Shown piece by piece: positions 13,613-26,689 of a DNA stretch of 64,000 nucleotides. Position 1 is the first letter of the stretch, and each line of letters starts with the position of its first letter. Source of the stretch: Opitutales bacterium (lineage in GTDB: Bacteria > Verrucomicrobiota > Verrucomicrobiia > Opitutales > JABSRG01); assembly GCA_049599475.1 (NCBI GenBank), contig JBMYOQ010000014.1, positions 14,826 to 78,825 of the forward strand, given 5' to 3'. The position numbers and the translations under genes were made by a program. The notes beneath the pieces are model-generated. The model worked only from the letters and a program-made list of their open reading frames with translations. It was not told the DNA's origin and did no database searches.

Positions 13613-13981
13613 GAATCAGGTCCGAGCAGACTGCTAGACGGCCAGTGTCAGTCGCTTCGTCGGACAGGTGTATTCAAGTGCATTTAATTTTGCACGTTCC
13701 ATTTCGCCAATTGCCACCTTCGGAGTGAAACGGAGAGCTCTCGAGATTTTGCTGCGCCCCATCTGTGCCTTGGACCCGCGATCGCCCATTCACCGGAATT
13801 CATTGTATCGAGGTTTGCAGTGTGGGTTTGAAAGGTCAGTTGAGGGCTGATTGGAGACCGAGTTTGGAATTCCAATTCATTTAGGCCTCGGCCCTGCTTG
13901 ACGGCTCTTCGCATTTTTTTAACAATTATGGTTTCTTGGACTGGCCTTTATGGGCTCCTCGAAATTGAATATTCGAATCAG

Positions 13982-14971
13982 ATGGAAACCGAAGCCTCAC
14001 TCAACGAAACATGGGACGCGCTCAGAGCATTCATCCTGGATGGACCGTGCGCGGCTATGCCATTGCGTGATTTGGAAAAGGACACGAATACGAGGCCAGT
14101 ATTCAGCGGATCGAAAAAGCGGGTAGGCACTGCGGGGACCTACGCGGAAATGAGCTATGAAGAATTGTGCGAGCACCCGGAATTCGTTAAAAGCCCCGAT
14201 CGAGTCAGCCGGTTGATCCGTCTCTTCAAGGGAATTGCATCCTTTGACATGCCCCTCGAGGGGATCTCAAAAAAAGTGGGTCGCAGAAGTATTAATATTT
14301 TCAAGATCCTGAACAACCTCAGGGATATCCAGGTTGATCCGGATCTTCCCCCTAGATTTTTGACTGTTTCCTCGACTCTGGAGAACCTGATAAAAGCAAA
14401 AGGTGTTACCTCGCTGAAAAATGTGTTTTCCATTTCCTCTGGCCTCTCCGAGGCCGCAATGAAACTTCATGAACTCGGGGATCTCGAGGGTGCTTTCCTC
14501 TCAGGCAGCCCAGAACGCATAGGGAAATACCTGCCGCTTAATCCGAGCGGTAAAGGCATAAGTCTCCAAGCGATCATGGCGAGATTCATGCAATCTCACG
14601 CGAGGGAACCCAATGCTCTGCCAGCCTTGGCTCGGGGGCTAGGGATGAAAACGAAACAGCATTCCCATATCGCTCCGGCTCCTCTGCAATTGATCGGAAC
14701 GTTCATCGTCGAGTGCACAGATTACTACGCGGCTGCAGTGGAGTTTTTTCCCGCTGAAGCAGAGGAGCTATCTTCGGTGATCCAGGATAGGACAACCTTC
14801 GACTCATCGGTGCGATTCATTGAGGACCCATATCAAAAATATTTACTGCACTACATTCTTTGCAGGTATTACGGGCAGGCTTTTCCCGCTCACCAAAGTG
14901 AAGGTCTTTTTGCGATCGGCAAGGCTGTGAACGGTCTCAAGCAGATGGCATCGGGGCTTTTTCAAAAATAG
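13982..14971 (+). CDS. Hypothetical cytoplasmic protein
   Basis: Long uninterrupted ORF filling the gap; start likely ATG 13982 (METEAS); no confidently recognised family. Confidence 0.7.
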   Translation: METEASLNETWDALRAFILDGPCAAMPLRDLEKDTNTRPVFSGSKKRVGTAGTYAEMSYEELCEHPEFVKSPDRVSRLIRLFKGIASFDMPLEGISKKVGRRSINIFKILNNLRDIQVDPDLPPRFLTVSSTLENLIKAKGVTSLKNVFSISSGLSEAAMKLHELGDLEGAFLSGSPERIGKYLPLNPSGKGISLQAIMARFMQSHAREPNALPALARGLGMKTKQHSHIAPAPLQLIGTFIVECTDYYAAAVEFFPAEAEELSSVIQDRTTFDSSVRFIEDPYQKYLLHYILCRYYGQAFPAHQSEGLFAIGKAVNGLKQMASGLFQK

Positions 14972-15956: not shown

Positions 15957-18086
15957 TCAGAATAACTGCTTGAAGAGATAAGTATACTCGAGGGCTATTC
16001 GCTTGGCGCGTTCTGTTTGATTGGCTGCTGCGGAATGACCTCCGTCGATATTCTCGTAGTAGTAAAAGGGGAGGTCGGCTTGTTCGAAAAGAGCGCCCAT
16101 TTTGCGTGCGTGTCCGGGGTGGACGCGATCGTCTTTGGTCGATGTAACAAAGAAGGGAGTCGGATAGTTTTTTTCTTCCGGTGCGAAATTATGCACGGGC
16201 GAAATTTTTTCGAGGAAGGCGCGCTCTTCGGGGACCTCTGGCGAGCCATACTCATCGACCCAGCTCGCTCCAGCAAGCAGAAGGTGGTAACGCAGCATGT
16301 CGAGTAGTGGAACTTGCACGACAACCGCGTTCCACAAATCGGGTCGCTGGTTCAGCATCACCCCCATGAGGAGGCCTCCATTTGAGCCGCCCATAATTCC
16401 TAATTTCTTTGGGCTTGTGATTTTGCGTTCAATGAGGTCCTCCGCAACCGCGATAAAATCATCATAAATACGCTGGCGGTTTGTCTTTAGTCCCGCCTGG
16501 TGCCAAGCCGGGCCGAACTCACCACCCCCGCGTATATTCGCTAATACGTAGGCTCCGCCTTGCTCAAGCCACAGTTTACCTACCGTTGCGCGGTAGTGGG
16601 GGCGCAAGGATACTTGAAAGCCCCCATAGGCATAGAGCAATGTAGGAGTCGTGCCATCGAAGGGAATGTCCTTATTGCGCACTACAAAATAGGGGATTTG
16701 CGTCCCATCTTGGGAGGGGACGAAGTGTTGCTCTACGACTAATTTAGAGGCGTCGAATTTTTCGGGGATCTCTTTTAGGGGTGTAATGTTTTGGTGCTCA
16801 ACACTGTATTCAAGGACCGAGTCGGGTGTCAGGAAATCGTCATACCCTACGAATACAGAATCTTCATGCTTATCCGCGAATACCACATAGGCCGTACCCT
16901 CGCCTGGTAATTTTATTTCACTCAATGCCCAACTGTTTTGGGAGTAGTCCAAACGCAAGAGTTTACTGGATACATTTTCGTTTATGGATAGTAGGGCTGC
17001 GCCCTTGGTGATGGATACACCGTTGACGGCTTGAGTCTTGTTTGGACGAAACACTAGGGATACTTCTGGTAGTTTGCCCGACTCCCAAAATTTGCGAAAA
17101 TCGAAGGCGCACAGATCGCCTGCTTTGAGTGCGATTCCCCGGCCTTCAGGGCTCCAGTCTTCGCGTAGTGCGATGAGCATTTGGTCCTCAAACAGTCCCT
17201 CTACGTCGGATTTTTGAGGAAGGGGCCACTTGACGGGTGTTCCGTCTTGAGTGAAATGCCAATGAGTGCTGGTGAAAAATGTATCCGCTTCTGTGGCACA
17301 TTCGACAATATCTCCGTTGGCGAGCTCGAGAACCATTGGCCACACGCCGACATCTGACTTTTGGCCACGATAGAGTTCGATGGCATCGCTTAAGGGTGTA
17401 CCCCGTTTCCAGCGTTTAACGATCATCGGGTAACCAGAATCTGTGAGGGTGTCTTCGCCCCAATCTGTAGCGATGAGCACTGTATCTCGATCGACCCAAG
17501 TGATACCTTGCTTGGCCTCAGGTGTGATAAATCCACCGTCGACGAAGGCCTTGCGCTCCATATCGAACTCTCGATTAATCACCGCATCTTTTCCGCCATC
17601 TGACAGCGAGACTAGATAGACATACTTATCAGCTCCTTTGGGCTTAAAGGACTTAGCTCCTTTGAATACCCAGTTCTTGTTCTCGTCTTTGGCTAGCTGG
17701 TCGAAATCTAGAATTGTCTCCCAGGCGGGCTCCTCATTCGCGTATTCGGCTGCGGGCGTTCTTCGCCAAAGTCCGCGGACATGTGTGGCATCTTGCCAAA
17801 AATTGTAAACAAACCCATCCCTTACGCTACCGTAAGGAATCCGCTCGTTAGACGTTAGAATCTGTTTGGCTGCTGATTCAAAGCCTGGATAGCGAGGGTC
17901 CGCCTGCAGGTCAGCCAAAGAGCGCTCATTGTGCTTGCGCACCCAGGCTAGCGCTTCCTCACCCTCAACCTCCTCGGCCCATAGCATTTCATCAAAACTC
18001 GACATACCATCCTCTTCTTGCGGGCTCTCGGCAGAAACATTGTGCATTAACGAAAAGCAAAGTGAAAAAATCAAAAACCGGCTCAT
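15957..18086 (-). CDS. Secreted prolyl oligopeptidase (peptidase S9A)
   Basis: YGGF, NIRGGGEFGPAWH, GGSNGGLL (Ser), DDRVHP (Asp), GGH (His); signal peptide. Confidence 0.95.
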   Translation of the reverse strand: MSRFLIFSLCFSLMHNVSAESPQEEDGMSSFDEMLWAEEVEGEEALAWVRKHNERSLADLQADPRYPGFESAAKQILTSNERIPYGSVRDGFVYNFWQDATHVRGLWRRTPAAEYANEEPAWETILDFDQLAKDENKNWVFKGAKSFKPKGADKYVYLVSLSDGGKDAVINREFDMERKAFVDGGFITPEAKQGITWVDRDTVLIATDWGEDTLTDSGYPMIVKRWKRGTPLSDAIELYRGQKSDVGVWPMVLELANGDIVECATEADTFFTSTHWHFTQDGTPVKWPLPQKSDVEGLFEDQMLIALREDWSPEGRGIALKAGDLCAFDFRKFWESGKLPEVSLVFRPNKTQAVNGVSITKGAALLSINENVSSKLLRLDYSQNSWALSEIKLPGEGTAYVVFADKHEDSVFVGYDDFLTPDSVLEYSVEHQNITPLKEIPEKFDASKLVVEQHFVPSQDGTQIPYFVVRNKDIPFDGTTPTLLYAYGGFQVSLRPHYRATVGKLWLEQGGAYVLANIRGGGEFGPAWHQAGLKTNRQRIYDDFIAVAEDLIERKITSPKKLGIMGGSNGGLLMGVMLNQRPDLWNAVVVQVPLLDMLRYHLLLAGASWVDEYGSPEVPEERAFLEKISPVHNFAPEEKNYPTPFFVTSTKDDRVHPGHARKMGALFEQADLPFYYYENIDGGHSAAANQTERAKRIALEYTYLFKQLF

Positions 18087-18196: not shown

Positions 18197-18271
<75 letters not shown>

Positions 18272-18425: not shown

Positions 18426-19592
18426 TCAAAACTCGAAAACGATGCCGACTAGCGCGACCGTACGATCGTAGGTGAGCGTTTCGGAGGTGTTGTCTACGAG
18501 TTCGTTTTCGATTTGGGCAAATAGGGTTGATTCGGCGGATTCGAAGAGATCGAGGCTGTATTCGATATCGAATGAGAACTGCCAGGCTTCTTTACTGCGT
18601 TCGGGCTCGTCGATACCATCAGCATCGATTTCTCCGTTATCGAAGCTCCGGTCGACGTATTCGGCCTCAAATGCTGCTTCTAAGGGGCCTTTCTCGTATT
18701 CGATTTCAACGTAGTAATCCTCGGTAGTTTTATCGCTGTAGCCGTCCCCATTATCCGAGCGTTGATCGTGGGATATACCTACCGAGATTTGCCATAGATC
18801 ATTGATCTCGTATGCGATTTGTGCGCCGACCATGATGCTGTCGTATTCGAGATCGGAGCCCGCAATGCGGTCGCCTGACAGATCTTTGATACGGCGGTCG
18901 ACGTAGCTGCGATGATGAAGTTCTAAATCCCCCGAGAGAGTGAATTTGTCGGTGGCGCGATAGCGGATGCGGAAGTCGGATTCGAATTCATGGTAGTCCA
19001 GGCGATCCAGCCCTAAGGCAGCGTAGTCCTCGGTGTAGTTTTTATAGCGGTAGCCATTGTCCCAATAGAGATACCATTTTCGGTCCTTTCGGTATCTGAG
19101 GCCGAAAATGGCATCGTAGGTCCAGCTGTCGTAGCGGTCGCCCACAAGCGTGCCTCGGGAAGCGGCTTCTTCGCCGGTGCGTCGACTTGTGAATGTGCTA
19201 TCGCGATAGACAGCAGAGACTTCGATGTCGCTATCTAGTTCGCCTCCGGACCAGTCATATTCGCCGCTGATTAGTTTTAGCGACGGGTTGATGTTCCAAC
19301 GGTTGGAATCGGATGCATCGGATTCGTAAAATAGGCCCCGGCCGTCTAGGGATAGTTCTATCGCTGCTTCTTTGCCGACGGTGTGTGTGAATGTTTGCTC
19401 AGCTTCGATTTCGGTGAAGAATGCGTTGTCATAACCGTCGTTGAGCTGAAATGGATTGGAGTCGTAGCCCAGTGCTGTGGAGATCTCCGATTCGGATTCC
19501 CAGCCATCACCGATGGCGACGGATTCGGTCGCGATAGCGATCGCGAGACTGAGCGTGGGTGTGAGTGCCTTTTTCGAGATAACAGAATGCAT
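18426..19592 (-). CDS. Outer-membrane beta-barrel protein (resembles polymer-export-associated barrels)
   Basis: Signal peptide; GYDSNP near mature N-terminus; alternating aromatic/polar strands throughout; C-terminal Phe strand VALVGIVFEF. Confidence 0.8.
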   Translation of the reverse strand: MHSVISKKALTPTLSLAIAIATESVAIGDGWESESEISTALGYDSNPFQLNDGYDNAFFTEIEAEQTFTHTVGKEAAIELSLDGRGLFYESDASDSNRWNINPSLKLISGEYDWSGGELDSDIEVSAVYRDSTFTSRRTGEEAASRGTLVGDRYDSWTYDAIFGLRYRKDRKWYLYWDNGYRYKNYTEDYAALGLDRLDYHEFESDFRIRYRATDKFTLSGDLELHHRSYVDRRIKDLSGDRIAGSDLEYDSIMVGAQIAYEINDLWQISVGISHDQRSDNGDGYSDKTTEDYYVEIEYEKGPLEAAFEAEYVDRSFDNGEIDADGIDEPERSKEAWQFSFDIEYSLDLFESAESTLFAQIENELVDNTSETLTYDRTVALVGIVFEF

Positions 19593-19598
19593 GACGTC

Positions 19599-21419
19599 TT
19601 AGGGGTGGGTGCTGTCTATAAATGCGAGGGCTTCAGCGTTTTTGCTGTCGAGCGCTAGGATGCGTCTGGCTTCTTCCAGGGCTTCCTCGATGTTTCCAAC
19701 TTTCTTCAAAAGCATTGCTCTTTGATAACGGAATCTCGACTCGGCGGGTAAGGCTTTAATTGCTTGGTCAATGGCTTCGATCGCTGACTCAAATTGCTGT
19801 TGGGTGGCATAGACATCGGATAATTCCGCTGCTAAATAGCCGTCGCGTGGATGTTGGGCGATCAGAGCAGTCAATTGACTAATCGCGGTCGTGTGCGCCC
19901 CGGTTTTCGAGAGATGACGCGCACGGAGCCGGGAAAGGGTGTTGGAGGTAATCCCCGCGTTTTCGGCGGCAGCGAGCCATTGGGAGGATTCTTGGATCAA
20001 GGTGTTTTCCAGCATCCATTGAATCGCATTCTCGTAGACGTCGACTTGCGGCCGGAGTGATCTGAGTTGTTGAAAGGCATCTAAGGTGGCCTCGGTGTCA
20101 GAGGTATCGACCAAATATTGGGTGCGCAGCTGCCAGCTTCTTGCTAATTTGGGATTAGCTTCGATGTGGCGCAGGGTGCGGCCGCCGGCCTGTTCATCCG
20201 TTTCCAGAATGGCAATTTCGGTGAGGGCGAGGGCCACTGTAGGATCGCTCTCGGCTTCCAGCTGAATCAGCTCGAATTTGTTTTTTGCTGCACTGAAATC
20301 TTCTTGGGCGAAATCGAGATGACCGGCCAAATAGTTTAATTTGTAGCTATTGGCTTTGCTTGGATCGACATCGTCCAGGGTCGCCCGTGCGCCTTCAATG
20401 TTTCCCTCAATAAACTGTATAAAGGCACGGATTATCCGTTTGTCCTGAGACGACTTTAGTTTGTTGAGGAGTTTCCGAAATTGTTGTTTGGCGCGAACTG
20501 GACGCTCGAGTTGCCACTCGATGAGGGCCATTTCCCAGTATCTGTTTTGCCGGGGAAATTCCAGATTGTGGAGGGCGGCGTAGTCCTTGAGGGCGGCCTC
20601 CAGGTCGCCGCGTTCCCAGAGCAGGCCGGCTCGCATGCGCAGACCGATCCGGTAGTCGGCTTGCAGCTCAAGGCAGCGATTCAGCTCGCGGTAGGCGTCT
20701 TCCCAGGTGCTGGGTGTCTTGGAATAGGAAAGGGCAAGGAATCGGCGTGTTGATACGCTCTCAGGGCGAAGCTCGAGGGAGCGTTTGTAGTCGGCGATCG
20801 CCGCGAGGTAGATTTCTTGAGATCGAAAACAGTGGGCCCGCATCGCATAGGCTTTGGCTTGAATGGATGGCTCGCCGACCTCGATCACCCGGGTGAAGGC
20901 GGAAATGGCATCTTGGTAATCTTCAGCGCGTCGGTGAAGGATGCCCGCATTGAACAGGGCGCTTTGATAATTGGGGAAAAGCTCGATCGCGCGTTCATAG
21001 GCTTTGATCGCTTCTGCTTCCTGATTCAATTTGCTTAGGCTCAGGCCCAGGTGGTAATCGATCCGCGCATCATTAGGATATTGTTCGTTGAGCTTTTCGA
21101 GATCTGCAATCGCCTCCTTGTATTCATCTTCGGCTACTTTTTCGATAGCGGCGCGAACGGCTGCCTCTTGCTCTGGATCTTCAGAGGCTGCGGGTTTTGG
21201 GCCGCTGCGCGGACTGTCTGTGGCTTCGGTCACTTCGAGCGGGGTGGCATCCTCGGCTTCATCGTCGGGCTCTTGGCCGGTACGCGCTTCGATGGCGATC
21301 ACCTTGGGTTTGAGAATTTTCTGCCGAGCGGATTCCTCGACCGCGTGGATTGCGAGGCCTAAGGCGAAGGCGAGACCTGTGAGCAGGATCGCTCCGAAAT
21401 AAACTTTACGCTGCTTCAT
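19599..21419 (-). CDS. Membrane-anchored/exported multi-TPR protein
   Basis: N-terminal hydrophobic segment, acidic Pro-rich linker, many TPR repeats (YHLGLSL..EAIKAYERAIELFP, AIADYKRSLELRP, EEARRILALDSKN); start overlaps upstream stop by 4 bp. Confidence 0.88.
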   Translation of the reverse strand: MKQRKVYFGAILLTGLAFALGLAIHAVEESARQKILKPKVIAIEARTGQEPDDEAEDATPLEVTEATDSPRSGPKPAASEDPEQEAAVRAAIEKVAEDEYKEAIADLEKLNEQYPNDARIDYHLGLSLSKLNQEAEAIKAYERAIELFPNYQSALFNAGILHRRAEDYQDAISAFTRVIEVGEPSIQAKAYAMRAHCFRSQEIYLAAIADYKRSLELRPESVSTRRFLALSYSKTPSTWEDAYRELNRCLELQADYRIGLRMRAGLLWERGDLEAALKDYAALHNLEFPRQNRYWEMALIEWQLERPVRAKQQFRKLLNKLKSSQDKRIIRAFIQFIEGNIEGARATLDDVDPSKANSYKLNYLAGHLDFAQEDFSAAKNKFELIQLEAESDPTVALALTEIAILETDEQAGGRTLRHIEANPKLARSWQLRTQYLVDTSDTEATLDAFQQLRSLRPQVDVYENAIQWMLENTLIQESSQWLAAAENAGITSNTLSRLRARHLSKTGAHTTAISQLTALIAQHPRDGYLAAELSDVYATQQQFESAIEAIDQAIKALPAESRFRYQRAMLLKKVGNIEEALEEARRILALDSKNAEALAFIDSTHP

Positions 21420-23956
21420 GAAATATCGGGGCTGAGTTCTTTCGCGAGGACGCCTTGAAGGCCTTCTTTGCGGATGTTTTGAATTTCGATTCCTGGGCGG
21501 GCATTGATCTCAATGACAACGGGGCCGTATTCTTCGTCGATACAGATGTCGACACCTGCATAGGCGAGGGGAACGGCGCGCTGTGCCTGGCCGGCAACTG
21601 CAAGCACGCGCGACCAGCCAGGGATTCGGAAGCCCGTGACTTTAGCTCCGCTATCTGGGTGAGTGTCTGTGGGCTTACCATTGTGTTGGGCGCGGCCGCA
21701 GACACCCGTCTCCAAATCGACATCTACTCCGATTGCGCCTTGGTGTAGGTTGGATTTGCCGCCGGATTGAGCCGTCGGGAGGCGCAGCATGGCGGCCACT
21801 GGTTTTTGATTTAAAATGATGACGCGCACGTCCGGGACTCCCTTGGGGACAAGGCTATTGAAAATGGTGGTCGGCGTCATCAAAGCCTCGACGAGAACGG
21901 CATCGTTTTCTCCGCTCTTGGAGTAGGTGCCGAGGGTGATTTCCCGCATATTATGCGCGATATCCTTTAGGCTCCAGGGTTGACCGGACGATTGGAAAAA
22001 AGTGTCGCCTTCGCGCCGGACAAGGAGAGTGATGCCGTTACCTTGGGAGCCTTTGGCTGGCTTAATTACCATGGACTGGATGCCTTTAGTCAGTTCCTCT
22101 ACTTCGTCAATTTGGCGGAAATCGGTGACTGTGAACAGGGTCGCGGGGCAGGGGACTTTATGTTCTTCAAAGGCTTTTTTTGAGGCAATTTTATCGTTGG
22201 CCATTTGAATCGCAGAGCGCGTGTTGAGCTCTTGGACAATCTCGCGGTTGCGCATATTGATGCCGAGTATCGAGCTTTCCGCGTTGAAATCGGGTTCATC
22301 TTTGCGCGCTCGAATGAGGTTTCGGAAGCGGAAATACTCCGATAGGCGTAGTGCGACCCAGCAGCCGACCCAGACCTGCAGCACAAACACGAGGGCAATG
22401 AGTTCGGGAAATGTCCCGAAGAGACCGCGCAGCAGAGATGAATCGTAAACGATGTAACAGAGTAGAATGAGGACGAGGGACCAGATGGAATTTCGGATCA
22501 GGGTAGTCCAGTCGCGATCATCGATCAGAGAACTCATCCGATTGGCGGTGAAGGACAGGATGACCACAGGAAATACAGCCAGGACGTTGATATCTGCGTA
22601 GAGGCTCAGTTCCTTCCAAGACAGCAGACCTAGCATGATGATGGTAATCAGTGTGATCACGGCCGCCATTTTTGAGATGTTGTGCATCCGTAAACGCTCA
22701 AGAAGTAGATGGAAAACGGTCGCTAGAAAAATGACTACGGCGAAGATTACCATGCCGCTGGCAAGTCCGGTGTAGCGGCAGGCGCCGGCGATGAGCATGG
22801 GCATGAAGACGCCAAAGGTTTGGAAGCCGAGAATGTTTCTGAAAAATGCGGTGATCAGGGCGGCCAGCGGAAACATCAAAAACAGGCCGGAAGTCTGCCG
22901 GTCGAGTCCCAAGCCGTGAAGGAAACTCACGAGATTGAATGAATCTGTCGCTGTGACCTCTGGATTTTCGTTTTCGTGTCGCGGGGTCAGAAAGCGTGAA
23001 CCGATACGCGACTCGATTACGATAACTCCGGCGATCGACTCGGTGCTGGAACCAGAAATGGATGCGTCTCGCTTGCGCAAAAAGGTATCCGGGATCTCTG
23101 CGAAATGATTGAAGCGCAGGCAGAATGGCACCCAGTGATCTTGGATTAACACTTCGTTCCAGTAGTGTTCCCGCAATTCCGCGGTGTTTAGCAGGTAGCC
23201 GTTGGCCACGCGGCAGGGCAGACCTTTGGCACGGACGAGCGCCGCCATCGCGTAGGCATGGTCAGCGGCATTGCCTCCGCTGAGTGCAAGGGCGGTTGCG
23301 CTGTCGGTGGTGGCCGCGAGGGCGTTATACTCCAATTCGGCGCGAAGCGTATCGAAGGTAGCGCGGAGAAAATCGTAAATGCTCTGGCTCTGTGAAAAGG
23401 GCTCTTTGGCGAGCCATTCGCTGACCGTTGGGTCTTCGACGCGGATGAATGGTGTCGAGCCGATGTCGGCAGGGTTGATGGCTGGGTTTGGGCCGCTTGT
23501 CAGGGTGAGTGCAGGATCGATTTCATAACGCAGGGCAGATGTTGAGAAGCGTGCGCTGTAGCCAATTTTACGCAGTCCGGTCGGATTTATGGCTTCCCAG
23601 GTTCCCTGTAGGCCTTGGCTTGTGTCCTCTTGCGAATAGGCCATCGCCCCGGTGATGATGTCCAAGTGGTCGATCCGCTGATTGTCAGCGTTTTCGGGTA
23701 GAAAGGTTTTTACCTGAATGTCGCCGCCTTGTCCGTCTAGAACCAAGGTATATTCAAGCTCATAGACTGTTTCGGGGATGATATCTACCAGGAGCGCGGG
23801 CTCTTCGTAAATCCGATACGCGACGAGGGAAATGACAGCGATTGCCAAGCAGATGACTGTGGTGTGCAGTAGCTTGACGGTGGGCAATGGGCTTTTTGAA
23901 GGAGTCGGCTTCGCGGGCGAATCGGGTGCCTCCGGAGAGTCTTCGGTCACTTTCAC
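21416..23956 (-). CDS. Fusion: inactive transglutaminase-like domain + 7TM domain + ATP-grasp ligase (alpha-L-glutamate ligase-related, RimK-like)
   Basis: TGase fold MAALVRAKGLPCRVANG..HYWNEV..WVPF; 7TM FRNILGFQTFGVFMPMLIA, FPVVIL, FPEL, LRLSEYFRFR; ATP-grasp LGINMRN, DKIASK, VIKPAKGSQGNGI, GVPDVRVI, MLRLPT..SGGKSNLHQGAIG, HPDSG, GVD..GPVVIEINARPG. Confidence 0.88.
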   Translation of the reverse strand: MKVTEDSPEAPDSPAKPTPSKSPLPTVKLLHTTVICLAIAVISLVAYRIYEEPALLVDIIPETVYELEYTLVLDGQGGDIQVKTFLPENADNQRIDHLDIITGAMAYSQEDTSQGLQGTWEAINPTGLRKIGYSARFSTSALRYEIDPALTLTSGPNPAINPADIGSTPFIRVEDPTVSEWLAKEPFSQSQSIYDFLRATFDTLRAELEYNALAATTDSATALALSGGNAADHAYAMAALVRAKGLPCRVANGYLLNTAELREHYWNEVLIQDHWVPFCLRFNHFAEIPDTFLRKRDASISGSSTESIAGVIVIESRIGSRFLTPRHENENPEVTATDSFNLVSFLHGLGLDRQTSGLFLMFPLAALITAFFRNILGFQTFGVFMPMLIAGACRYTGLASGMVIFAVVIFLATVFHLLLERLRMHNISKMAAVITLITIIMLGLLSWKELSLYADINVLAVFPVVILSFTANRMSSLIDDRDWTTLIRNSIWSLVLILLCYIVYDSSLLRGLFGTFPELIALVFVLQVWVGCWVALRLSEYFRFRNLIRARKDEPDFNAESSILGINMRNREIVQELNTRSAIQMANDKIASKKAFEEHKVPCPATLFTVTDFRQIDEVEELTKGIQSMVIKPAKGSQGNGITLLVRREGDTFFQSSGQPWSLKDIAHNMREITLGTYSKSGENDAVLVEALMTPTTIFNSLVPKGVPDVRVIILNQKPVAAMLRLPTAQSGGKSNLHQGAIGVDVDLETGVCGRAQHNGKPTDTHPDSGAKVTGFRIPGWSRVLAVAGQAQRAVPLAYAGVDICIDEEYGPVVIEINARPGIEIQNIRKEGLQGVLAKELSPDIS

Positions 23957-24150: not shown

Positions 24151-24705
24151 ATGAAAACAGTAACGCTCAACGCACAGAAACGAGAGGCCACAGGTCGTGG
24201 GAGCTCGCGTCGCTTGCGCAATGAGGGACAGGTTCCAGCAGTCGTTTACGGCAAGTCTGGAGTCGAAGGCCTCGCTGTCGACGCAGTAGCTTTTCGCGAA
24301 CTTTACTTGGAGGTCCGCGGTACAGCGGCATTCATCGATCTAAACATCGGTGACAAGTCCGTAAAGACCATCATCAAGGATATTCAATTGGACGCACTTA
24401 CACGTAAGTTCCTCCACATTGATTTCAACGAAGTCGACGATAACACAGTCATGACGGTTAACGTCCCAGTGAGAACCACCGGCGAAGCATTCGGTGTGAA
24501 GACTGAAGGCGGCATCCTCGACGTTGCCGTGAAGAACGTAACCATCCGTTGTAAGCCGGCAGATCTCCCATCTTCTATTGATGTGGATATCACGGACCTC
24601 AAGAAGGGTGAGTTCGTACACCGCAAGCAACTTCCTGCCCTGGAGGGTGTGAAGTATGTGGGCGATCCGGCTTCCGTAATCTTGGGTGTCACTAGCGCCA
24701 GCTAA
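24151..24705 (+). CDS. rplY: 50S ribosomal protein L25 (CTC form)
   Basis: SRRLRNEGQVPAVVYG, LHIDF, GVKTEGG. Confidence 0.96.
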   Translation: MKTVTLNAQKREATGRGSSRRLRNEGQVPAVVYGKSGVEGLAVDAVAFRELYLEVRGTAAFIDLNIGDKSVKTIIKDIQLDALTRKFLHIDFNEVDDNTVMTVNVPVRTTGEAFGVKTEGGILDVAVKNVTIRCKPADLPSSIDVDITDLKKGEFVHRKQLPALEGVKYVGDPASVILGVTSAS

Positions 24706-24717
24706 TTTATGATTTTC

Positions 24718-24751
24718 GCAGAGCTTTGAATCTTCAGGGCTCTGCTTTTTT
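24718..24751 (+). terminator. Intrinsic terminator after rplY
   Basis: gcagagctttgaa/ttcagggctctgc stem followed by T run. Confidence 0.75.
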
Positions 24752-24763
24752 GTTCTTTTTCAG

Positions 24764-25348
24764 ATGCATCCGGTTTGCGCGATAGTGGGCTTGGGAAATC
24801 CTGGCTCCGAGTATGCGCAAACCCGCCATAACATCGGCTTTCACATTTTGGATGCCTTGGCTGCCTCACAGAAGGCGGTATTCAAGGACGTCTCCAAATT
24901 TGAAGCGTCCGCATGTCAGGTGTCCATGGGTGAATCAAGCATTTGGCTGGTGAAGCCGCTTACTTTCATGAACCGAAGTGGGCGCTGCATTGGCCCGATG
25001 GCGCGATACTATAAGTGGCTCCCAGAGCAGATTATCGTCGTGTACGATGAGATCACGCTCGATCCAGGGAGGCTCAAGCTGGCTGTGCGCGGTAGTGCGG
25101 GCGGTCACAACGGTATTGCGGATATATTGACTCACTTGGGCAACGGATTCGTGCGATTCCGGGTCGGCATTGGACCGAAGACGCACGCGGAGATGGATTT
25201 GGCTGATCATGTCTTGGGTAAGTTTACCGAGACAGATCAAGCGTGGGTGCAAGAACACACGCCTCATTATTTAAACGCTCTGCAGCTGATCGTGCGGCAG
25301 GGGACTGAGGTGGCCATGAACCGTTTAAACCAAAAACCAAGCAAATGA
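24764..25348 (+). CDS. pth: Peptidyl-tRNA hydrolase
   Basis: GLGNPG, TRHNIGF, KPLTFMNRSG, GSAGGHNG. Confidence 0.96.
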   Translation: MHPVCAIVGLGNPGSEYAQTRHNIGFHILDALAASQKAVFKDVSKFEASACQVSMGESSIWLVKPLTFMNRSGRCIGPMARYYKWLPEQIIVVYDEITLDPGRLKLAVRGSAGGHNGIADILTHLGNGFVRFRVGIGPKTHAEMDLADHVLGKFTETDQAWVQEHTPHYLNALQLIVRQGTEVAMNRLNQKPSK

Positions 25349-25644
25349 GTCTAACTACAACCAAATACTACCGTGCATCCTTCATTTTGGATACGCGCGG
25401 ACTCGAAACTTCAGCCGAAGATCTGATCGAAGAATTCGCGGGAATCTCCTCGTCGCTCGGTGCTGAAGTCACCAAGAAGGAAAACATGGGAGTCATGCCC
25501 TTCGTGCGGGTCACGGACAAGAAGTTCCCTGAAGGCACCTTCTTCCAGCTCGAGCTTAAGGCTGAGCCTACATTCCCAGCTGCCATCAAGGATAAGCTGC
25601 ACCTCGACCGTCGCGTAAACCGCATCTTGATTAACAGCCTTTAA
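25345..25644 (+). CDS. rpsF: 30S ribosomal protein S6
   Basis: 99 aa with S6-like pattern (Y...FILD, MG..F, G.F.L); position before ssb. Confidence 0.85.
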   Translation: MSLTTTKYYRASFILDTRGLETSAEDLIEEFAGISSSLGAEVTKKENMGVMPFVRVTDKKFPEGTFFQLELKAEPTFPAAIKDKLHLDRRVNRILINSL

Positions 25645-25692
25645 TCGATTTTCACGCTTGCCTCGAGCGACGAAACAACTGAACAAATATTC

Positions 25693-26154
25693 ATGGCTTC
25701 GTTTAATAAAGTAATCCTGATGGGAAACTTGACCCGCGATCCTGAGATGCGGATGACCCCAGGCGGACTTGCAATCGCAAAGTTCGGCCTCGCTGTGAAT
25801 CGTAAATATACCACCAAGGACGGCGAATCTCGCGAAGAAGTGACTTTCGTGGATTGTGACGCTTTCGGAAAACAGGCTGAGATTATCTCTCAGTATGTGA
25901 AGAAGGGGGGTATGCTGTTCGTTGAAGGCCGCTTGAAGCTCGATCAGTGGGAATCTCAAAATGGCGAGAAGCGCAGCAAGCTCGGCGTTGTTGTGGACAA
26001 CTTCCAGTTGATGCCACGTAGCGGCGATTCTTCTGGCTCGGGATCGGGAGACCGTGGATATGAGAATGTATCCCCTCCTAGCCGCAGCCAAAGCAACTCG
26101 CGCCCTGCGGCGCCTGCTCCTGTGGAAGACATCGATGACGATGTCCCATTCTGA
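25693..26154 (+). CDS. ssb: Single-stranded DNA-binding protein
   Basis: NKVILMGNLTRDPE, VEGRLK, acidic tail DDDVPF. Confidence 0.97.
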   Translation: MASFNKVILMGNLTRDPEMRMTPGGLAIAKFGLAVNRKYTTKDGESREEVTFVDCDAFGKQAEIISQYVKKGGMLFVEGRLKLDQWESQNGEKRSKLGVVVDNFQLMPRSGDSSGSGSGDRGYENVSPPSRSQSNSRPAAPAPVEDIDDDVPF

Positions 26155-26194
26155 TTGAATCGAAATTTAAAATAACAAAATAGAAAGCATACCC

Positions 26195-26689
26195 ATGTCG
26201 GTAAAAGAAGTACTCTTGCTCCAGCCTGTTGAAGGCTTGGGCGCTGAAGGTGAGCAAGTCACCGTAAAACCGGGTTACGCCCGCAACTACCTGCTTCCTC
26301 GCAAGCTTGCTATCCCTATGACACAGGCGAATCGCAAGCAGATGGAAGCTCTCCAAGCGCGTCGCGACGCCCGTGAAGCAAAGCTTCTTGGCGAAGCTCA
26401 GGAACTGGCTTCACGCGTAATCAACATCAAGCCTGTATTCGCCGTGAAGACTGGCGAAGGCGGCAAGATGTTCGGTGCGATCACTGTCGGCGATATCCTT
26501 GCTAAGCTCGAAGAGGGCGGCATGACTTTGGACAAGAAGCAAGTCTTGCTCGAGGCACCTGTTAAGGAACTCGGAAAGCACGCGGCGACTGTAAAGCTCC
26601 ACACGGACGTAGTTGTTGAGCTATCTTTCGAAATCGTCTCTGAGAATCCAATCGAAGAAGGCGCGGAAGAAGAAGCTGCTGAAGCGTAA
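26195..26689 (+). CDS. rplI: 50S ribosomal protein L9
   Basis: VKPGYARNYLLP, GKMFGAIT, VKLH. Confidence 0.97.
   Translation: MSVKEVLLLQPVEGLGAEGEQVTVKPGYARNYLLPRKLAIPMTQANRKQMEALQARRDAREAKLLGEAQELASRVINIKPVFAVKTGEGGKMFGAITVGDILAKLEEGGMTLDKKQVLLEAPVKELGKHAATVKLHTDVVVELSFEIVSENPIEEGAEEEAAEA

Follow-up and report, generated by a model that had tools for sequence, protein, structure and literature searches.

RloABC of Pseudomonas aeruginosa and the synthase-dependent systems of polysaccharide export are the described systems with which the locus studied here is best compared. The locus is a cassette of three genes, for a membrane-bound ATP-grasp ligase, a tetratricopeptide repeat (TPR) protein and an outer-membrane beta-barrel, in a stretch of 64,000 nucleotides from an Opitutales bacterium (the window, in whose coordinates all positions are given). 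In the available parts of the study of RloABC, RloA is a secreted retropepsin that cuts runs of at least eight glutamates, RloB is a seven-helix, inactive transglutaminase, and RloC is a cytoplasmic ATP-grasp (Lormand et al., mBio 2025, PMC12239564). Without the RloA proteases, hypo-osmotic survival, cell shape and biofilm suffer, and deletion of rloB or rloC rescues these defects; in Pseudomonas, antibiotic susceptibility, biofilm and cell shape are all influenced by RloB and RloC. Those parts report no genome-encoded substrate of RloA, leave polyglutamylated proteins open as substrates, and do not identify the product of RloB and RloC (PMC12239564). The simplest inference, ours and not the paper's, is that a product rich in glutamate leaves the cytoplasm through the action of RloBC, because RloA is secreted, cuts polyglutamate and has no encoded substrate, and because its loss is rescued when rloB or rloC is deleted.

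Among the other systems that bear on the comparison, AlgK is an outer-membrane lipoprotein, and in BcsC, PgaA and PelB the TPR region is fused to the barrel. Slam carries an N-terminal TPR region and a 14-stranded barrel in one protein. RimK is a soluble enzyme that acts on ribosomal protein S6, extending its terminal glutamates, and makes poly-alpha-glutamate. CapBCA and PgsBCA pair a cytoplasmic amide ligase (CapB, of the Mur type) with a small, polytopic membrane protein for the export of a glutamate polymer. Synthase-dependent export systems in general are made up of an inner-membrane synthase, a TPR protein and a barrel of 16–18 strands, according to the available part of the source (PMC9601211).

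The cassette is real and widespread, and it seems to be an undescribed form of a known but unsolved system. Judged by sequence, it has an RloABC-type core in a polysaccharide-export-type layout, and it is outside both RloABC (no RloA, scores below the cut-offs) and the polysaccharide synthase systems (no glycosyltransferase). A serious candidate for its function, though somewhat short of a probable one, is that it makes a polyamide, probably poly-alpha-glutamate, and exports it in a synthase-dependent manner.

Organization and conservation of the cassette

The features of the locus are as follows.

21416–23956, minus strand: fused RloB/RloC-like ligase, open reading frame (ORF) of 846 aa with a GTG start (ORF list)
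19599–21419, minus strand: TPR scaffold, ORF of 606 aa (Pfam TPR)
18426–19592, minus strand: outer-membrane beta-barrel, ORF of 388 aa (AlphaFold2)
18197–18271, minus strand: tRNA-Asn(GTT), 154 bp beyond the barrel stop (ARAGORN)

The ligase and TPR genes overlap by 4 bp (ATGA, 21416–21419), and a 6-bp spacer (19593–19598) separates the TPR and barrel genes. An earlier note on this DNA had described this arrangement of three minus-strand genes, and its coordinates were confirmed. It had also named the products as a polytopic membrane protein with a C-terminal ATP-grasp, a TPR protein and an outer-membrane barrel, and Pfam and AlphaFold2 agreed; the periplasmic transglutaminase-fold domain of the first protein is an addition to that description.

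The cassette was surveyed in species genomes (72 loci, from the best 80 of 179 matches) and, with a split-form query, in metagenomes (80 loci, the best 80 of 535). Both sets consist of best matches to the query and hence are not random samples. Four genome loci had less than 600 bp after the ligase and one lacked the ligase end, which left 67; 16 metagenome loci were too short or had no ligase, which left 64. A TPR gene directly followed the ligase at all 67 genome loci and at 62 of the 64 metagenome loci with room for it. The barrel was the third gene at 32 of 62 genome loci and at 40 of 49 metagenome loci with room; the latter count uses profile A8, which was partly built from those barrels, and the independent profile A4 found 30 at full length. 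The 32 barrel-bearing genome loci span at least 11 named families. Cultured carriers of the cassette include Marinifaba aquimaris (L069), Aliikangiella spp., among them A. coralliicola (L024), and Pseudomaricurvus alkylphenolicus (L058). Identical gene order in dozens of unrelated genomes places the arrangement beyond chance, and the neighbourhood check proposed in the earlier note thus found both partners co-conserved with the ligase.

For a control, the sequence around 20 loci, taken from the 30 canonical rloB loci with the highest scores, was extended. Each of these 20 rloABC loci had RloA and none had a TPR or barrel gene; an RloA-like gene occurred at one of 152 cassette loci (L121). Reciprocal searches started from the barrel. 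Among 350 genomes in the class of G253 there were four full-length matches (E 1e-64 or better; the next was 1e-12), three of them preceded by a 7TM gene at a distance of about 3 kb, the fourth standing alone as a TPR-barrel fusion. The 301 genomes of the window's order gave only two strong matches, both in the cassette. The barrel family thus seems nearly dedicated to the cassette. Across the loci surveyed, no regulator, transporter, substrate, OPX or Wzz gene conserved beside it was seen.

The start of the ligase gene is uncertain, since database record P0001 (844 aa) begins at a second in-frame GTG two codons on. A sequencing run from an independent study covered 29 of the 30 bins of the locus with zero substitutions or indels listed, and the reading frames are therefore taken as genuine and not as an assembly artefact. 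The runs that best matched the locus were seawater or marine metagenomes. An RNA run gave short pieces only, one of them within the barrel gene, and does not count as evidence of transcription. A 1282-bp joint in run X2 was set aside, one of its sides being 22 letters long. In a scan of the locus for promoters and terminators, the signal did not exceed that of shuffled sequence.

Relationship of the ligase to RloB, RloC and other ligases

Pfam assigned three domains to the ligase: Transglut_core (PF01841, residues 189–278, E 7e-13), 7TM_transglut (PF14402, 345–547, E 1e-34) and ATPgrasp_ST (PF14397, 569–838, E 4e-65). The protein consists of an N-terminal transmembrane anchor (~25–51), a periplasmic transglutaminase-fold domain (~60–320), seven helices (353–531) and a cytoplasmic ATP-grasp (~560–840). 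This topology, which exposes the transglutaminase domain to the periplasm and the ligase to the cytoplasm, is predicted from the seven helices and their basic cytoplasmic loops (positive-inside). The AlphaFold2 model had a pLDDT of 91 and a pTM of 0.87. In fold searches, the periplasmic part matched the bacterial transglutaminase-like structure 3isr (Z 22.3), and the C-terminal part matched ArgX (Z 18.6) and RimK (Z 17.0), with LysX/ArgX entries between (Z 17–18.6). Matches of the whole ligase came from its soluble domains, and none speak to the fold of the seven helices; an ESM Atlas search with the 7TM domain returned PF14402 clusters only.

The domain set shared with RloABC comprises the 7TM_transglut membrane domain, the periplasmic transglutaminase-fold domain and the ATPgrasp_ST ligase, and at this level gene 1 is a fused relative of RloB-RloC. 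The cassette differs from RloABC in the fusion of RloB and RloC, the absence of RloA and the addition of TPR and barrel. Between the cassette ligases (145 rows) and RloC (20 rows), 55 positions were conserved in both and three differed consistently. The ATP-grasp residues K589, K632, E690, D709, R711, R725, N736, D803, E816, N818 and R820 were all present in the window ligase, whose ATP- and metal-binding positions are intact and common to RloC. In the 7TM domain, arginines 373, 473, 537 and 543 were kept in 92–97% of 191 rows. Against the RloB profile NF052267 the window protein scored 79 bits, over the transmembrane part only, and did not reach the cut-off of 900; against TIGR02291 it scored 252 bits (cut-off 314). 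Its closest named homologue, at 41%, came from an Opitutales metagenome-assembled genome (locus L017).

In the tree, the fused ligases, the window's included, formed one branch (99; 98 SH-aLRT in a rooted quick tree of 43 rows, in which the outgroup branches were long), and RloC formed another. An earlier midpoint tree had placed RloC within the TPR-associated ligases. This placement was dropped after the rooted tree and an AU test, which did not reject a single clade of TPR-associated rows (p 0.8; the constrained tree was better).

The best sequence matches of the ligase among solved structures were RimK proteins. It shares with RimK the ATP-grasp fold and alignable NLHxG, D-x-R and E-x-N motifs; however, identity was about 20–22%, the TIGR00768 score was 67 bits against a cut-off of 143, and the window ligase is fused to a membrane domain. 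Compared with CapBCA/PgsBCA, the window ligase is an ATP-grasp and not a Mur-type CapB, and CapBCA has neither TPR nor barrel. Relatedness between the 7TM domain and CapC (PF14102) was considered. CapC was the best outside Pfam match for two of 44 split 7TM proteins (E 0.006, weak). Hhalign comparisons gave E 0.002 with small profiles, out of register, and 0.014–0.056 with larger ones, and the best E among 20 unrelated membrane families used as controls was 0.018; the templates were tandem CapC-like proteins and not Bacillus CapC. A search of the window's own genome found no PF14102.

The transglutaminase core of the cassette proteins (PF01841) is complete and usually carries Cys-His, unlike that of RloB. 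After three gapped rows of 155 were left out, 148 of 152 cassette domains kept the Cys-His pair, the third position being Asp in 111, Cys in 19 and Gly in 18. The catalytic Cys was lost only in the window protein, P0002, L017 and P0054. The window triad is broken (Cys to Ala230, His264 kept, Asp to Cys279), as in inactive RloB. The window and L017 both keep TPR and barrel. RloA (PF05618) was not found in the window's own genome (96.6% complete), nor was any match to a dedicated RloA profile. PF05618 was also absent from three of four other cassette-bearing genomes searched, and the fourth has it on another contig. The result is a near-exclusive split between loci with a Cys-His domain, TPR and barrel but no RloA and loci with a dead domain and RloA but no TPR or barrel. 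This split suggests that RloA and the transglutaminase-fold domain, where the latter is active, have similar roles in trimming. In the part of another study that was available, such transglutaminase-like domains are predicted to reverse ATP-grasp tags in another system (PMC3495828). The window is an exception to the split, with a dead domain, no RloA found and the export arm kept.

The same ligase was also found fused to other extra domains (P0130, P0156, P0157, P0162, P0121, P0131, P0168, P0173, P0177, P0146, P0170), namely prenyltransferase-like alpha/alpha toroids, a subtilase, a MATCAP-like carboxypeptidase, a RimB/RloA-like protease and a receiver domain. The 7TM-ligase core acts as a platform for several partner sets, frequently including a peptidase.

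The TPR protein and the barrel

The 606-aa TPR protein matched many Pfam TPR families. It opens with a basic start and a hydrophobic segment (~9–28); a Glu that is conserved, a short motif of the beta type and an acidic linker come next, ahead of the repeats. The elements from the hydrophobic segment to the linker open nearly all TPR homologues listed. Two natural ligase-TPR fusions, P0053 (transglutaminase-7TM-ligase-TM-TPR, 1558 aa, from a cluster of 18 members) and P0154, retain the hydrophobic segment between ATP-grasp and TPR. Since the same segment sits inside these fusions, it is most likely an uncleaved inner-membrane anchor, although cleavage is possible in the window copy. Either way, an N-terminal membrane segment would place the repeats in the periplasm. 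A cytoplasmic TPR protein, which the earlier note had held to be incompatible with its proposal, was thus not found; of the exported protein it had described, the periplasmic side stood, and free export did not, the protein looking membrane-anchored. The fusions argue that ligase and TPR act in one complex. A complex prediction for TPR (80–606) with barrel (27–388) scored 0.01 against a mark of 0.32, which is evidence neither way.

The barrel was modelled with 16 long strands (mean pLDDT 91), and the protein has an N-terminal signal-like segment and a C-terminal Phe. Its Pfam matches were weak (DUF2490 3e-5, below the cut-off; PF13557 5e-5). The conserved residues of the family are G42-x-D44-x-N46, R153, Y186, R228, Y230, R278, D280, Y375 and R377. 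The Arg and Tyr among them (R153, Y186, R228, Y230, R278, Y375, R377) cluster at strand ends and are all present in the window copy. Lumen positions, which were assigned from strand alternation with no coordinates used, were net positive in 54 of 78 rows. One record (P0064) has a 7TM-ligase that runs on into a barrel-like region, and at L157 and L173 the barrel directly follows the ligase and TPR is absent.

Like Alg8/AlgK/AlgE, BcsA/BcsC, PgaCD/PgaA and PelB, the cassette combines an inner-membrane enzyme, a periplasmic TPR region and a 16-stranded barrel. Unlike them, its enzyme is an ATP-grasp with no match to a glycosyltransferase family in Pfam or NCBIfam, and its TPR protein appears to have an inner-membrane anchor and is joined to the enzyme in natural fusions. 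A sequence search of the barrel against export barrels of the AlgE, BcsC, PgaA and PelB types gave zero matches.

Partial, weak profile matches (E ~1e-9 to 1e-13) reached BBP2_2 (PF10082) and Slam (PF04575) members, far weaker than those within the family (1e-64 or better), and BBP2_2 and SlipAM are its distant kin by profile. Of six weak relatives inspected, three stood beside OPX or chain-length/kinase genes (two of them BBP2_2), one was a Slam and two could not be placed; PF04575 matched one of 50 barrel rows (E 0.006). Unlike the BBP2_2 barrels of OPX-coupled polysaccharide export, the cassette has no conserved OPX or Wzz neighbour, and it differs from Slam, a type XI secretion system (T11SS) component, in its separate, membrane-anchored TPR and 16 strands. 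Weak as it is, this sequence kinship says more than the fold matches.

A stand-alone 551-aa protein (L280:10847–12502) joins a short stretch of TPRs to a barrel of the cassette type (E 5e-65), in a Slam-like layout. A sister barrel family was found in the window's order (55 weak matches in 301 genomes; loci L180–L197 and L295–L297). Its gene is flanked on one side by that of a helical protein, small, secreted and highly charged, and on the other by that of a histidine kinase; the locus resembles an envelope signalling or export module lacking a name.

Proposed function and alternatives

In the proposed mechanism, the three genes would encode one envelope-spanning machine in which a peptide ligase of the RimK/RloC type replaces the glycosyltransferase. 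At the expense of ATP, the cytoplasmic ATP-grasp would link amino acids into a polyamide, whether short or long, that is most likely poly-alpha-L-glutamate, and the fused 7TM domain would move the chain through the inner membrane. The periplasmic transglutaminase-fold domain would take up the chain; Cys-His versions could trim or transfer it, and that of the window lineage could only bind it. The membrane-anchored TPR protein would lead the chain over the periplasm to the 16-stranded barrel, which would release it at the surface. RloABC would be a sister version in which the product stays periplasmic and is cut by RloA. The specific route, in which the ATP-grasp polymerises glutamate or another amino acid and threads it through its own seven-helix channel and on by the anchored TPR to a dedicated 16-stranded barrel, is tentative.

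Glutamate is the likely monomer since RimK is the best match among solved structures and RloA, in the available parts of that study, cuts polyglutamate (PMC12239564). The 16 strands fit the 16–18 of synthase-dependent translocons in the part of that source available (PMC9601211). Also in favour of the proposed mechanism are the co-conservation of the genes, the contrast with the rloABC control loci, the reciprocal barrel searches, the natural fusions, the OPX and Slam links of the weak barrel relatives, the arginines kept in the 7TM domain, and the Arg/Tyr set and mostly positive inferred lumen of the barrels. The earlier note's proposal of the same trans-envelope architecture with a peptide ligase is thus upheld for the three-part layout, which matches that source, and for co-conservation; the making of a polyamide and its passage through the 7TM domain and the barrel we infer.

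Several points weigh against polyamide export. The product, activity and channel of every member, RloBC included, are putative. No trimming enzyme is evident in the window genome, which has no intact triad in the cassette and no RloA match. The window barrel is the most acidic of the 78 rows (net -46; 17 K/R against 37 D/E at the inferred lumen positions), which would be awkward for a polyanion. General porins (Z 19–20) outrank PelB (17.8), AlgE (17.3), BcsC (16.8) and PgaA (16.5) in the barrel fold search, leaving no specific fold tie to export barrels. The sister barrel family adjoins histidine kinases at 15 of 18 loci, and the full-length relative at L280 has no ligase in the 18 kb retrieved around it. 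The comparisons did not establish that the 7TM domain is homologous to CapC, the larger-profile E values being no better than the best unrelated control. The barrel is absent from 30 of the 62 genome loci, which form two tight groups, 26 Hyphomonadaceae-like loci (at least 82% to L050) and four of Kangiella (at least 89% to L025), and it was not found in five genomes of these lineages in a search without a positive control; it is dispensable in both. It was also undetected at nine of the 49 metagenome loci, and TPR was missing at two of 64.

The alternative that survives best, although we hold it unlikely, is tagging or cross-linking. Here a short unit made by the ligase, an amino acid or a peptide, would cross the membrane, and the transglutaminase-fold domain would couple it to an acceptor in the envelope (a protein, peptidoglycan or a glycan), which TPR and barrel would hold or export as those of Slam do for proteins. 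The Cys-His pair retained in 148 of the 152 domains fits this well, as do the best fold matches ArgX, LysX and RimK, which ligate amino acids onto proteins, and the barrel relatives, which include a Slam and a TPR-barrel fusion. Polyglutamylated proteins are also possible RloA substrates in the available parts of the Pseudomonas study (PMC12239564). However, no substrate gene is conserved beside the cassette, and the barrel has 16 strands and not the 14 of Slam. The four proteins that lost the catalytic Cys also speak against it; the dead domain of the window, with its export arm kept, is easier to reconcile with export than with tagging that depends on a transglutaminase.

A product that stays periplasmic, with the barrel optional, seems distinctly unlikely. 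Ligase and TPR would then supply the periplasm with a polyanion that serves osmotic or envelope homeostasis, as may be the case for RloBC, and the barrel would be an accessory vent or anchor and not the main route. Ligase and TPR are indeed the invariant pair, the barrel is missing in two lineages, rloABC loci have no barrel, and the Rlo phenotypes reported in the parts available concern hypo-osmotic survival and cell shape (PMC12239564). Against this, the barrel is kept with tight spacing in most independent lineages of several phyla, and at full length it almost never occurs away from the cassette.

Inward signalling or uptake, in which a barrel receptor or porin is sensed by TPR, its state relayed to the 7TM domain and a cytoplasmic target modified by the ATP-grasp, is very improbable: the histidine kinases beside the sister barrels (15 of 18 loci), the uptake porins at the top of the fold search and one ATPgrasp_ST homologue fused to a receiver domain (P0170) are outweighed by the absence of a conserved regulator or transporter, by Rlo genetics that link the cytoplasmic ligase to a secreted polyglutamate protease (PMC12239564, in the parts available), by the adjoining S6-like ORF (25345–25644), which ends RILINSL without terminal glutamates, and by the ribosomal neighbours of the window, which were not found at other loci.

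Genomic context and related loci

The cassette is flanked by tRNA-Asn (18197–18271), which lies outside the conserved unit, and by a divergent block (24151–26689) that we take, from sequence likeness, to be rplY-pth-rpsF-ssb-rplI. A functional tie to these ribosomal genes was rejected on their absence from other cassette loci. The fused ligase gene was present in just one of 60 relatives, so patchy inheritance or transfer of the cassette is likely; its GC content was unremarkable compared with its surroundings. Beyond the tRNA, on the same strand, lies a secreted-type prolyl oligopeptidase (S9; 15957–18086). A homologue occurs within a few kb of the ligase in L077 and L082 only, probably by chance. 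A 357-aa ORF at 13898–14971 had zero Pfam or NCBIfam matches.

Several related arrangements were noted in other genomes. At L128, L130, L131, L143, L145, L167 and L288 (split-form), an additional TPR protein, which resembles CpoB/YbgF and has a lipoprotein-type signal, stands inside or just before the cassette. The split-form loci L148, L149 and L153 encode a very long TPR protein (940–995 aa) with no adjacent barrel detected. A further 7TM_transglut subfamily (~545 aa; L282–L285) has no adjacent ATPgrasp_ST gene; a protease resembling RloA/RimB lies close by, in many cases on the other strand. Membrane proteins of ~660–1120 aa with two tandem CapC (PF14102) domains were found in Gram-negative genomes (L089–L092 and L198–L205; four of 201 and eight of 301 genomes searched), and may represent a diderm poly-gamma-glutamate-type system.

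Novelty and significance

The ligase-TPR-barrel cassette was not found described in the main texts of the literature searched; Iyer et al. (2009), the source of these Pfam families, may show the neighbourhood. The parts available of PMC8939145, PMC12096838 and PMC13419641 do not describe it, and CfmP (PMC13419641) belongs to a different ATP-grasp family. The earlier note's view that this composition was undescribed therefore holds for the cassette as a whole but not for its core, a relative of RloB-RloC (PMC12239564, in part).

The cassette places ligase and membrane domain in one polypeptide and adds a candidate exit pore with no degrading protease, so that expression of the three genes should let the product accumulate and be identified. 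If the reading of polyamide export is true, the missing RloBC product would be revealed, together with a new use of the synthase-TPR-barrel design, and the principle of alginate, cellulose and poly-N-acetylglucosamine export would extend from sugars to peptides in Gram-negative bacteria. An exported polyamide would then be an unrecognised surface or extracellular polymer in many marine and sediment bacteria.

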